Shown: in pieces, positions 259 to 62,459 of the stretch
Layout of the letters: every line of letters begins with the position of its first letter
How positions within the stretch are numbered: position 1 is the stretch's first letter
NCBI GenBank assembly: GCA_951406725.2
Contig: OX597837.1
Location: forward strand, 38,378,001 to 38,442,000
DNA: 64,000 nt
Direction: 5' to 3'
Origin: Octopus vulgaris
Lineage: Eukaryota
The notes under the pieces: model-generated
Told to the model about the DNA's origin: nothing
The model's database searches: none
Seen by the model: only the letters and a program-made list of their open reading frames with translations
Translations under genes and position numbers: made by a program

Positions 259-1126
259 TATATATATATATATATATATATATATATATATATATATATA
301 TATATATATACATACATACATACATATATACTTACATACATATCTATACATATATATATATATATATATATGTGTGTGTGTGTGTGTGTGTGTATGTGTG
401 TATGTATGTAAGTATGTATGCATGTATGTATATATATATATATATATATATATACTCACACTCGCGTGAAACACATGCACACCCACACACACACACCTAT
501 ATCTATTCATATATATGCACTCACGCACGCAAACGCACACACACACACACACACACACACACACACACACACACACGCGTGTATGTTCCCATATGCGCAC
601 AAATATGTCCGTATACACGTTTATATACGCACATGCACAAAAAATGCAGGGTCAAAGGTAATATACAGAAAAAAATATCTAAAAATATATACAAAAATAT
701 GTAAAAAGTATATATAAAAAATATAGAGAGATTAAATGTTTGTACGTGGTCACAATATGAAAAGCAGGTTCTATCTGTGACTTTGGGATGGACCAAAAAC
801 GTAATAATTATTTAATCATGTGTGGACATCATCCAAGAAGTTCAGTTATTGAATTCAGACATGCAGCAGGGTCTAAGCTGCTTTTCCAGAGGAGCCATCT
901 TTCCATATCACAAAGACCGCACTTATTATATGATCGATCACCACGCATCCATTTCTAAGTAAGTTTTATATAAATATATGTATATATATATATATATATA
1001 TATATATATATATATATATATATATATACATATAGACAGATATATGTATATATACATATATATATATATATATATATATATATATATATATATATATATA
1101 TATATATATATTTATTATATAGAAGG

Positions 1127-1177
1127 AGCTTCTACAGGACTAGAACTGTTTCATTCAAGAGAAATCTTCAGGAAGCT
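1127..1177 (-). ncRNA. Type I hammerhead ribozyme motif (mirror copy in left arm)
   Basis: Exact reverse complement of 1283-1333. Confidence 0.85.
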
Positions 1178-1282
1178 AGTTAACAAGAATTGTATTGGCA
1201 TTTATACATTTAGGCAGGTTTAAAGGGGTGTTGGTGGGGGACCTGCCTAAATGTATAAATGCCAATACAATTCTTGTTAACT

Positions 1283-1333
1283 AGCTTCCTGAAGATTTCT
1301 CTTGAATGAAACAGTTCTAGTCCTGTAGAAGCT
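1283..1333 (+). ncRNA. Type I hammerhead ribozyme motif
   Basis: agcttc-CTGAAGA-tttctcttgaat-GAAAC-agttctagtcct-GTA-gaagct: stem I agcttc/gaagct (6 bp), stem II ttc/gaa, stem III acag/ctgt, intact core, GUA triplet at 1325-1327. Confidence 0.85.
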
Positions 1334-1839
1334 CCTTCTATATAATAAATTAATTTTACTCTGCTATGTATTGAGTACCTTACTTACTGTGGTTAACCCC
1401 GAATCAACCCGGGACCTACATATATATATATATATATATCCCTGTGTGAACCAGAGTACTGGATGTTGTTATACACCGCTTTCTCATTTAAAGTTTCAAA
1501 TGATGCATCCCTGTTGCATCATTTGAAAGTTGATGGAAATAGAATCGTACAAGATTTTGTAAAATGTGTACTTACATATAAGAGAACAAAGTGTACGTAC
1601 GCCTCTGTATGTATATATATATATATATATATATATATATATATATATATATATATATATATATATATATATATATATATATATATATATATATATATAT
1701 GTGTGTGTGTGTGTGTGCGTGTGTGTATAAGTACATGCACACATTTCAGATAGATAGATAGATGGTTCAAATTTGCAGTAAACACAACACGAAGGCAGGT
1801 GAGGGAATAACAAGCAGGTGTATTAGAGAAAGGAAAAGT

Positions 1840-1875
1840 CTTTGACGTTTCGAACCAATGCACTTCGACAGAAAG
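1840..1875 (-). ncRNA. Minimal hammerhead-like motif (no stem III, variant core)
   Basis: Minus strand cttt-CTGTCGA-agtgcattggttc-GAAAC-GTC-aaag; stem I cttt/aaag; one core mismatch, stem II imperfect. Confidence 0.5.
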
Positions 1876-1990
1876 GATTGAGAGGAAAAAAACGGAGAAA
1901 TGTGTAGGGATATTATATATATATATATATGCGTGCGTGCGTGCGTGCGTGTGCGTGTACGTGTGTGTGTGTATGAGGAAGGTGGGAGAT

Positions 1991-58892: not shown

Positions 58893-59262
58893 AGGCGCAG
58901 GAGTGGCTGTGTGTTCGGACACTTGCTTCCCAACCACATTGTTCTAGGTTCAGTTCCACTGCGTGACACTTCGGGCAAGTGTCCTTTACTATAGCCTCAG
59001 GCCTACCAAAGCCTCGATAGTGAAATTGAAAGAAGCCCGTCTTATGTATATGTGTGTCTGTGTGTATGTGTGAGCGCGCGTGTGTGTGTGTTGTGTGTGC
59101 GTGTGTGTGTGCGCCCCCCATCACCGTTTGATAACCGGTGCTGGTTATGTATGTATGTATTTATGTGTATGTGTTTGTCCCCCCCAACATCGCTTGACAA
59201 CCGATGCTGGTGTGTTTACGTCCCCGTAACACTTAGTGTTTCGGCAAAAGAAACCGATAGAA
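58893..59262 (+). mobile_element. SINE family A, 3'-truncated by the Penelope-like element
   Basis: Head ggcgcaggagtggctgtgtg; tail stops at ...accgatagaat. Confidence 0.8.
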
Positions 59263-59263
59263 T

Positions 59264-61480
59264 AGAATCATTTTCGCTTGACAAAAAGGTTTAACAAACA
59301 AAGAATGTGACTACCTAACCCACTTCGATTGCATGACTAGCTACTTCGACGGTCCCCCCCAAATATCCATAAGAATCAACCTATTAAGAATGCATGTAAT
59401 GAACCAACTTCAAGTTGCATAAACATACAATATCCCACCGACCTTAAATGTAGCCCAATGGTAGCTGGCCCGAACTGTGAAACACACAGAATCAGAAACT
59501 TCTTAGATATATTACTGAAACCTATTTCAAATTGCATACCAAGTCTTGTAAGAGACGATCTGGACTTGTTAAATCACTTCCCAAAATCCATAACCAATAA
59601 TACCACTATTGTATGTTTTAATGTGGTAAACCTCTATACCACAATCCCTCATCAATATGGACTAGAGGCAATAGATTTCTGACTTGAAAAATTCCCTCAT
59701 GAAATTCCAGAAAGAATTTAAAAGAGTTTCATCACTAAAGAATTTAACTTCATCCTCGAAAACAACTTTTTTGACTTCGATGGCAATGTTTATGGAACTG
59801 CGATGGGAACAAAAGTTGCACCGACTTACGCCAATCTAGTCTTGGCATACATCGAAGTCTAGATATATGAACAATCTAAATTAAAATATGGCTTGGACTT
59901 CCACAAATATCTACTAGAAACTGGAAACGTTACCTAGATGACTGTCTAATCTTGTGGACGAACACATTTGAATAATTTATAGATTTCAAAAACCCAATCA
60001 ACAGCATAAACAACAATATCAACCTTACCATGGAATGCAGTATAATTTAACTACCATTCCTGGATATACTAATCATCAAGAGAGATAAAATCATTGAAAC
60101 AGACATTCACTACAAACATATTCTAAATAGTACCTATTTTTCTCCTCATGCCACCCCAAACACACGAAGAATAATATTCCCTTTAATCTAGCAAAAAGAA
60201 TCTGTACAATTGCCTCAAACCCTGAAACTCGCAATAAAAAAATCCAGAAACTAAACCAAATACGACTTAAGAGACAATATCCATTAATATTAATAGGCAA
60301 CGGAGTAGAACGTGCCAAAGCAATAAATATCCAAGAACTACGAAAAAATGCTCCAGATACATCCAATAATCTACCATTTATTACAACACACAACCTATGA
60401 AACACAGAGGTTTACAATATTTATCCACCAGAACATCCACAACTAAGACAAGACTCAAGATTGAAAAAAGCATTCGAAATATACAAAAAAGATCAAAAGT
60501 AAATGACAATCAAAGTCCCTCAAAAAATTCCTTGAAAGTACTAAATTACCTTCCGCAGTTTCCACACCAACAGTCAAAGAGTGTGACCGCCCCAACTGCA
60601 GGACTTGCATCAATTTTATTGAAAACATAACATAAAATTCAAATCACGGGAGCTTTTTACCGTAAAAATCATTTTACATGTTCTTCAATGTATTTAATAT
60701 ACACTATGAAATGTCAAGAATGTAATGAAGGTTACATAGGTCAATCAAAGCTTACTCTAAGAAATAGACTGACCATTCATCGACAACAAATACAAGACTC
60801 CAATACTAGACAGATTCAACTGAATGGACACATAGACATATGTGCAAAAAAATAAGTCCTTCAAATTCCAGGTCTACCCACTCTACCTATGTTCAGTGAA
60901 TACCACCTATGAAGCACGGATGAACAATGAAAATACTTTCATAAAAGAATATAAATTAAAACTTAAATTTTAACAGAGTAGATCCACACATAACAATTCA
61001 CACATGAAACTCATTCTGCCACTTAACATGAGGAACCTACACAGCTAACAACCTAAACTTTAGCCAGTAGACTACATACAAACGACTCCTGTCCACTCCT
61101 CCTCTAGGAAGATTGAATTTAGAGTGCCTTGATTATAACTAAACATGTTCACTTCACCGTGTCGGCCTTTATTTTAGACACAAAATATACTGTAACGTGA
61201 CACTAACGCACGGACGTAGCAGGAAACGCACAGAAGGTTCTAAACTTAATCACGTGTTTATTCTCTACAAACACTTGACAGAAATCATTCAGAGCATTGA
61301 TTGTTTGGTAGTCACTAGACATATTCAGTCAACCGTGTCAGCCTTAACTTACAAAAATTGTAACTTGATACTAACACACGGACGTAGCGGGGAATTTACA
61401 AAAATATCTAAGACCAGTCATGTGACTAATCTCTACCAATCAAATCCGATTCAAAACGCATTGTGAACTTCTAGTTTTAA
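59264..61480 (+). mobile_element. 5'-truncated Penelope-like retrotransposon (Neptune-like)
   Basis: RT + GIY-YIG remnant followed by a 3' region with an imperfect internal duplication (~61150-61290 vs ~61330-61470), ending in (TA)n. Confidence 0.88.
59335..60973 (+). pseudogene. Penelope-like RT / Cys-rich linker / GIY-YIG endonuclease, disrupted
   Basis: FNVVNLYTTIP, GTAMGTKVAPTYAN (~59794), WKRYLDDC (YLDD 59931-59942), LPFLDI, SCHPKHTKNNIP, ECDRPNCRTC linker (~60579), LIYTMKCQECNEGYIGQS (~60694); several stops and frameshifts. Confidence 0.92.
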
Positions 61481-61975
61481 TATATATATATATATATATA
61501 TATATATATATATATATATATATATATATATATATATATATATATATATATATATATATATATATATGTGTGTATGTATGTATGTATGTATGTATGTATG
61601 TATGTATGTATGTATGCATGCATGTATGTATGTATGTATATGTATGTGTGCATATATATATACATACATACATACATACATACATACATACATACATACA
61701 TACATACATACATATATACATACATACATACATACATACATACATACATACATACATACATACATACATACATACATATACATTCATACATACATACATA
61801 TATATATGAAAAATAGAAGTTCACAGTGCATTTTGGATCGGATTTGATTGGTAGAGATTAGTCACATGACTGGTCTTAGATATTTTTGTAAGTTCCCCGC
61901 TACGTCCGTGTGTTAGTATCAAATTACAATTTTTTGCGTCGTAAGTTAAGGCTGACACGGTTGACTGAATATGTC
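61318..61975. repeat. ~160-bp inverted repeat around a partly self-complementary microsatellite
   Basis: 61318-61480 is a near-identical reverse complement of 61807-61975; spacer is (TA)n,(TATG)n,(TACA)n. Confidence 0.93.
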
Positions 61976-62115
61976 AAGAGCATGTAAAGAACAAAAAAGT
62001 TTAACAAGTTCATTGAAATATTGGGCACAAAAGATTACAACAAATATATTGTAATCTTTTGTGCCCAATATTTCAATGAACTTGTTAAACTTTTTTATGT
62101 TCTTAACATGGTCTT
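61976..62115. repeat. ~65-bp fold-back, right arm duplicated again at ~62274-62340
   Basis: ...gttcattgaaatattgggcacaaaagattacaa-caaatata-ttgtaatcttttgtgcccaatatttcaatgaac... Confidence 0.93.
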
Positions 62116-62414
62116 GTCACCAAAGAATGTATATATATGGATTGTAGTACTCTGTGTCAACCAATATTCTGTGCGTGTTTGAATATACAGATACAATACC
62201 AATATCCCACTGAATTTTTAATAATTCCTTCTGGAAACTATCTTTAACATGTTCTTGAGAATGTATATTTATGTTGTAATCTTTTGTGCCCAATATTTTA
62301 AGGAACTTGTTAAACTTTTTTATGTCCTTAACATGTTCTTGTTACCAAAGACTGTATATATGTAATGTAGCATTTTGTAACAACCAATAATTAACGCAAC
62401 CAAACTTCTACATG

Positions 62415-62459
62415 TTACTTTTGACAATCTTTTTCCAAAGAGTGAAACCGGTAAAGTAA
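62415..62459 (+). ncRNA. Decayed minimal hammerhead motif
   Basis: ttactt-TTGACAA-tctttttccaaagagt-GAAAC-cg-GTA-aagtaa; stem I 6 bp perfect, stem II tcttt/aaaga, core with two transitions. Confidence 0.6.

Follow-up and report, generated by a model that had tools for sequence, protein, structure and literature searches.

What is the origin of the hammerhead ribozyme motifs scattered over a 64,000-nucleotide stretch of the Octopus vulgaris genome (assembly GCA_951406725.2, contig OX597837.1, positions 38,378,001 to 38,442,000; the window), and do they still cleave? An earlier note, made from the letters of this stretch, had listed five canonical type I hammerheads, four degenerate ones and two half-motifs, and had ascribed them to Penelope-like elements (PLEs). 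The present analysis indicates that the scattered motifs are the truncated 3′ pseudo-LTR (pseudo-long terminal repeat, pLTR) ends of several PLE families, short, often folded back and embedded in (TA)n tracts. The commonest lineage, which is still spreading, carries a U for the normally fixed core A at position 6 (A6U).

With a strict descriptor (CUGANGA, stem I of at least 4 bp, stem II of at least 3 bp, GAAAC..GUH), four loci were detected in the window (1127, 1283, 35326 and 51205), compared to a mean of 0.03 and a maximum of 1 in 30 local dinucleotide shuffles. This control, proposed in the earlier note, speaks for real motifs. The fifth locus described as canonical, 14764, fails in stem I. 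When two core mismatches were allowed, eight loci were found against 0.8 in 15 shuffles; one of the eight, at 28992, is probably a chance match. The sequences described previously are all present at their coordinates, those at 1840-1875 and 43679-43713 on the minus strand. Stems I and II are paired, with the ends in stem I, at 1127, 1283, 35326, 51205, 62415 and 38855 and in the consensus of family C (for the families see Table 1); the copies at 14764 and 43679 lack this pairing. Every full motif contains G12-A13-A14, the 15.1-16.1 pair and an NUH site. The core is canonical in families A, D, E and G and contains a paired U3:A8 in family H. Families B and C deviate from U4 or A6 in the CUGA turn and are filed here as hammerhead-like variants, not as proven members. 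The stem III palindromes are ACGU (B and C), ACCGGU (H), ACAGCUGU (E) and a wobble palindrome (G), with near-palindromes in A and D.

Of the nine full motifs, which were compared with the genome or with sampled loci, seven lie at the 3′ end of dispersed repeats that terminate in (TA)n, those at 1127 and 1283 belonging to one family. The copies of a family have one common 3′ end at (TA)n and a variable 5′ end, often with an inverted piece there, which matches the insertion pattern of PLEs (PMC8557442; this paper as well as PMC3088659, PMC6765202, PMC9901934, PMC11167929, PMC13282606 and bioRxiv 10.64898/2026.07.22.740005 are cited from excerpts). The proposal of several independent PLE families with (TA)n targeting and a reduced, palindromic stem III was thus supported. 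In genome-wide searches, in which the best 40 candidates per motif out of larger totals were scored, relatives were 99-100% identical for family A (1283; 996 candidates), 93-95% for B (38855; 2,305), 76-83% for C (1840; 2,404), 79-92% for E (35326; 2,191), up to 99% for G (51205; 1,107) and 97-99% for H (62415; 2,202). For family D (14764), relatives ending in (TA)n and containing fold-backs were found in 1.94 Mb of sampled loci. In the same 1.94 Mb, no relatives were found of the motif at 43679 or of the 3′ half-motifs noted at about 8711 and 42484 (here 8716 and 42487); their sequences are present but unverified. Having weak stems and no (TA)n within 500 nt, the motif at 43679 is probably an old remnant. 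The half-motif at 35125 was missing from the earlier list; its family possesses C4 in four of five strict members.

Links to open reading frames (ORFs) of PLEs, comprising reverse transcriptase (RT), zinc finger and C-terminal GIY-YIG domains, were found for families B, C and H, so that the proposed connection between flanks and RT loci was seen for these three families. For family C, a GIY-YIG piece 1 kb upstream of the motif has at least 150 genome matches at 98-100%. Among 14 fetched elements of this family, 13 have stop-free frames of 1,024-1,200 amino acids (aa). All 14 contain CUGUUGA, as do six of six shorter loci, and 12 of the 14 have it in both pLTRs at a distance of 4.45-4.57 kb. 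Young relatives of family H (frames of 776-846 aa), which came up among the matches of the window PLE, carry UUGACAA in both pLTRs, 5.8 kb apart, at four of five loci. These ends are about 90% like the 62415 end (96% at L194). A family B copy in L316 lies 2.9 kb behind an open RT-endonuclease (RT-EN) frame that is 69% identical to the family C frame; the family B motif was seen at the 3′ end only, in one truncated element. RVT_1 was detected in L204 and L176 and the CX2-5CxxC linker in element translations, while GIY-YIG scored over the cut-off in the window piece and under it in L204.

Two of the cores formerly regarded as degenerate, at 62415 (U3:A8) and 1840 (U6), turned out to be the consensus of their families. 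At 38855, C4 belongs to the family core as well, and the additional G5A is probably CpG decay, since CCAACGA occurs in five of the eleven nearest family B relatives but in none of seven sampled copies. Exact genomic copies of family C comprise 14,944 with U6 versus 158 with A6; in the systematic sample, 18 of 20 copies had U6, two C6 and none A6. Twenty A6 copies that were examined are scattered over the U6 subfamilies (18 changes versus a shuffled mean of 18.6), as later point mutations would be, and an A6 subfamily ancestral to family C was therefore unsupported. The tree of families B and C retained 97 of 168 rows, its bootstrap is unsettled and two C rows are mislabelled as B. One copy (L245, G000:C2:178469453), basal in this tree, combines a 5′ flank like that of family B with family C sequence in stem II and the 3′ flank, and its core is canonical; it may be an intermediate or a recombinant.

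The motif of family C is under constraint. The 3′ flank alone retrieved 35 copies, 31 of which retain the motif. In these, constancy fell below 80% in 2 of 37 columns of the motif (N7 and H17), compared to 39 of 100 in the flanks. This comparison omits three gap columns, and its Fisher p of 5e-5 is optimistic as the copies are related. H17 was A in 22, U in six and C in two of the 31 copies, and G in none. The subfamilies are 76-92% alike, with G8, G12, A13, A14 and both stems fixed. In four public contig sets from four organisms, other letters within the motif are confined to loop II, N7, H17 and the outermost base of stem I; no alternative letter was present at position 6 at the 3% level. 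For family B, 10,195 exact 30-mers were counted, the first 100 listed having C4 (78), U4 (20) or A4 (2), and the U4 copies group into subfamilies of their own by flank. C4 also prevails in a second, unrelated family, that of the half-motif at 35125 (four of five members).

The genome-wide scale was estimated from 86 systematic 10-kb stretches (860 kb of a 2.8-Gb genome, several small chromosomes being unrepresented). They contain 27 intact motifs (0-3 in shuffles), 19 of which are not CUGANGA. This corresponds to one motif per 32 kb and, by extrapolation, to about 88,000 per genome (58,000-128,000). Including decayed homologues, 52 were present in the sample, i.e. at least one per 17 kb or about 170,000 per genome. 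A (TA)5 lies within 200 nt downstream of 16 of the 27 motifs, compared to 16% of 2,000 random positions. Strict counts in the first 80 stretches (800 kb) were eight canonical cores, four U3:A8, five U4C, six A6U, one A6C and one A6G, against 0-1 in five shuffles; the unpaired cores C3:A8 and U3:G8 gave no match there. With three motifs in 64 kb under the descriptor of the sample, the window is about average. The frequency of one motif per 6-7 kb given in the earlier note, a window count including decayed and half motifs, is about two- to fivefold too high. On the other hand, its notion of a large under-annotated population was supported: no Rfam hammerhead family reached the gathering score in five sources (window, L204, L176, L285 and L187). 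At E<=10, the best 150 Rfam matches of the window were microsatellite-driven microRNA and small RNA models under their gathering scores, with 591 weaker ones beyond. The window is dense in microsatellites, which also dominated repeat detection within it. Beyond the families of the window, at least six more were seen in the systematic sample (L065-L144, L329-L334) and elsewhere among the loci, several U3:A8 singletons being included.

How might these elements use their motifs? Same-strand copies flank long ORFs, 4.5 kb apart in family C and 5.8 kb in H. A read-through transcript of such a tandem element would hold two motifs, the palindromic stems III of which could pair, and cleavage after GUH would free unit-length RNA. 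It is likely that full-length tandem element RNA is cut as dimers or with the help of the element protein, and that solo copies are inert. Dimers of PLE hammerheads cleave with low activity (PMC4209133), protein-assisted hammerhead cleavage has been reported (PMC11167929), and natural A6C showed low but detectable activity (PMC3088659). Because the A6U lineage keeps the whole hammerhead pattern and only catalytically free positions drift, we lean slightly towards a slow, assisted cleaver, judging from sequence conservation. That the U6 hammerhead (C6 in older branches) of this amplifying autonomous Penelope lineage still cleaves, either as a dimer or licensed by the RT-EN, is a tentative proposal, plausible rather than probable. 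A heterodimer in which a canonical partner rescues the A6U strand was rejected, since core and stem II of that strand would then be free to drift.

Several observations weigh against this account of PLE-derived motifs with assisted cleavage. In a full pairwise scan, hammerheads with one altered base in the CUGA turn were of low activity (PMC9901934); natural A6C cleaves slowly, and the in vitro activity of U4C is weak (PMC3088659). Mutating the hammerhead of an Anolis PLE left insertion in vitro unaffected, and no reads of this element ended at the cleavage site (PMC11167929). Minimum free energy folds of most short motifs lack the hammerhead form, both as monomer and dimer; that of the family A monomer contains stems I and III. 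In the column test, copies that are related count as independent, and the flanks are prone to indels. No link to an ORF was found for families A, D, E and G, and the sequence upstream of long copies yielded none for A, E or G. In one young family B subfamily, U4C is accompanied by a U-U mismatch of stem I, suggestive of relaxed selection. Moreover, the PLE at 59.3-61.5 kb, cited previously as an example source of the motifs, and its inverted 3′ copy are both devoid of their family's hammerhead. It is conceivable, though somewhat unlikely, that A6U (and U4C) motifs no longer cleave and that their fold is kept for RT-EN binding or folding or for a pLTR promoter. The low activity of CUGA-turn mutants and the dispensability of cleavage for insertion in vitro fit this explanation, as do the Naiads, which spread without canonical hammerheads (PMC8557442). 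Furthermore, two sister lineages, whose ORFs are 69% identical, each altered a U-turn base, and the family B subfamily lost one stem I pair in addition. However, H17 is never G, and G8, G12, A13, A14 and both stems are fixed, as cleavage would require.

A neutral origin, in which successive master elements fixed the variant cores as passengers and the motif is under no selection, is improbable. Any mutation becomes fixed when its master element amplifies, much of the pLTR flank is conserved too, and the subfamilies are few and related; but the motif columns are steadier than the flanks, ORF pieces upstream of C-type motifs span 65-100% aa identity, and the depth of the contigs is greatest over the motif, to both sides of which there are loose ends. 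An equally small probability is given to the suggestion of the earlier note that the solo copies are an active ribozyme population cutting host intronic transcripts. In its favour, there are about 88,000 intact motifs, family A with its 4-bp stem III could fold alone, and the common ACGU palindromes could permit pairing in trans. By contrast, no host exon was found in the window and nothing showing it to be intronic (of 71 complex ORF pieces, a single one matches Pfam, as a DDE transposase), stems III of 0-4 bp require a partner, the window contains no same-strand pair of motifs of one family, the family A pair at 1127/1283 is a 110-nt fold-back that would form a long RNA duplex, and published in vitro rates are low (PMC4209133).

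PLE hammerheads, their dimers, the U3:A8 pair (known from Schistosoma PLEs; PMC4209133) and the (TA)n bias were already known. The octopus motifs share with the minimal PLE hammerheads of PMC4209133 the pLTR location, a short stem I, an extra base after A9 and a stem III that is palindromic or absent. In both cases a genome contains many families, mostly as solo truncated copies, together with pairs on opposite strands and the U3:A8 variant. However, the descriptors of that study fixed A6 and the representatives in the aligned part of its Fig. S3 possess CUGA or UUGA, whereas the commonest lineage here has U6 and another one C4; no cephalopod row was found in this part of the figure. The counts reported there were about 2,000-9,000 per genome, compared to about 88,000 by sampling in this study. 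The small PLE variants of Lunse et al. 2017 also have a diminished stem III, PLE association and dimer cleavage (as given in PMC6765202). Natural core variants (Perreault et al. 2011, PMC3088659) include U3:A8, A6C (kobs <0.1/min), a viroid U4C and U10.1-U11.1, but these are rare, single phage, bacterial or viroid examples, and the excerpt does not name A6U, while the octopus variants are high-copy retrotransposon master sequences. With the C-terminal endonuclease-bearing Neptune/Nematis PLEs (PMC8557442) the elements have in common the RT, the CX2-5CxxC linker, GIY-YIG, the (TA)n bias, 5′ truncation, partial tandems and inverted 5′ copies; the assignment is by domain layout, and the octopus elements differ by long CA- or TG-rich 3′ untranslated regions (UTRs). 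Non-LTR retrozymes (bioRxiv 10.64898/2026.07.22.740005) contain type I hammerheads related to those of PLE pLTRs, but are tandem non-coding repeats. The window copies are dispersed truncated ends, those of B, C and H deriving from coding elements; no motif family is repeated on the same strand in the window, and tandems elsewhere are coding units of 4.5-5.8 kb. In the excerpt of an octopus repeat annotation from 2026, 30 Penelope families are given as recently active, and ribozymes are unmentioned (PMC13282606). An A6U master core was not found in the literature searched, most of it at the level of listings, although Lunse 2017, Perreault S6/S7 and Craig S2 may hold such cores.

The A6U lineage makes it testable what the Penelope hammerhead does and whether its cleavage matters for transposition, as young long-frame elements with canonical, U3:A8, U4C or A6U motifs coexist in one genome as a natural experiment. 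Should A6U turn out to cleave, the consensus of the core would have to be widened, and with it the descriptors used in searches; together with the recurrent U4C families, standard descriptors would miss about two thirds of some 90,000 hammerheads here. If A6U is silent, the element most successful in this genome spreads while conserving a silent fold, and this would point to a non-catalytic role.

Table 1. Hammerhead motifs, their insertions and related elements in the window
Feature	Position	Strand	Remarks
Family A inverted hammerhead copy	1127..1177	-	fold-back 1110-1219 / 1241-1350, 100% identity over 110 nt
Family A insertion, very young	1241-1420		ends in (TA)n; hammerhead 1283..1333 at its 3′ end
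Family A hammerhead	1283..1333	+	canonical core, U10.1-U11.1 mismatch, 4-bp stem III, near-palindromic loop
Family C insertion	about 1755-1900		stem II decayed in 1840..1875 copy
Family C minimal hammerhead	1840..1875	-	core CUGUCGA (A6U, family consensus), ACGU palindrome
Second family C 3′ tail	2279..2334	-	82% over 56 nt; truncated downstream of hammerhead
3′ half-motif GAAAC-palindrome-GUA, unverified	8716..8727	-	no relative in 1.94 Mb
Family D fold-back insertion	14400-15109		ends in (TA)n; relatives at L053/L054, L202, L283, L094
Family D hammerhead	14764..14837	-	canonical core, long stem II, stem I decayed here
5′-truncated 3′ half, further hammerhead family	35125..35197	-	81% over 73 nt to L237
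Family E hammerhead	35326..35373	-	canonical core, ACAGCUGU palindrome, (TA)n at 3′ end
Family E partial inverted copy	35388-35417		beside hammerhead 35326..35373
Family B insertion	38785-38992		between (TA)n tracts
Family B minimal hammerhead	38855..38889	+	this copy CCAACGA; family core CCGACGA (U4C)
3′ half-motif GAAAC-AGCU-GUA, unverified	42487..42498	-	no relative in 1.94 Mb
Perfect core boxes, stems I and II failing	43679..43713	-	unverified
Family G insertion	51105-51335		between (TA)n tracts
Family G hammerhead	51205..51247	+	canonical core, wobble palindrome in stem III
Broken, 5′-truncated PLE	59250..61478	+	RT motifs, CxxxxCxxC linker, C-terminal GIY-YIG (PF01541 E 9e-6)
Inverted 3′ copy of window PLE	61809-61978		
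Family H insertion	about 61975-62545		ends in (TA)n
Family H hammerhead	62415..62459	+	core UUGACAA (U3:A8 compensatory pair, family consensus), ACCGGU palindrome

Among the matches listed for the PLE of the window, relatives carry a U3:A8 hammerhead about 170 nt before the element end; the window copy aligns to them until 61457 and then skips to the terminus, so that its hammerhead appears to have been deleted. The two 3′ ends (61458-61478 and 61809-61978) are oriented towards each other with a (TA)n/(TACA)n tract in between, and the hammerhead segment missing from them is the same; this suggests that a hammerhead-less template was copied. In the young U3:A8 family (L176:4980-6386 on the minus strand, L175-L179), an upstream frame of up to 468 aa directly behind the 5′ hammerhead overlaps the start of the RT frame. 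The junction differs between copies, and a frameshift or a single long ORF is possible.

The 3′ UTRs of long PLE copies contain 0.5-2.9 kb of degenerate (CA)n- or (TG/TA)n-like sequence that is common to the copies (L176 about 700-2670, L316:6545-9350, L204:6562-7040, and L187 upstream of family A); these elements may spread much of the microsatellite-like DNA of the genome. At L187:2505-3264, an inverted family B 3′ end is fused to the 5′ side of a family A insertion. As this arrangement was found at L187 only, the reading of family A as an element with two ends and family B attached was rejected. A genome search for the upstream end of family B matched a neighbouring short repeat instead. 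Another family A insertion (L189:4215-8080) harbours an intact-looking two-ORF long interspersed nuclear element with endonuclease and RT (1,039-aa frame). In many family E copies (window 35356-35417 and relatives), the inverted piece of about 37 nt ends at one shared point and holds just the 5′ half of the hammerhead; family G copies likewise invert at a fixed point. The DDE transposase of the window is a Tc1/mariner-type fragment at 16113-16535 on the minus strand (PF13358, E 3e-15).

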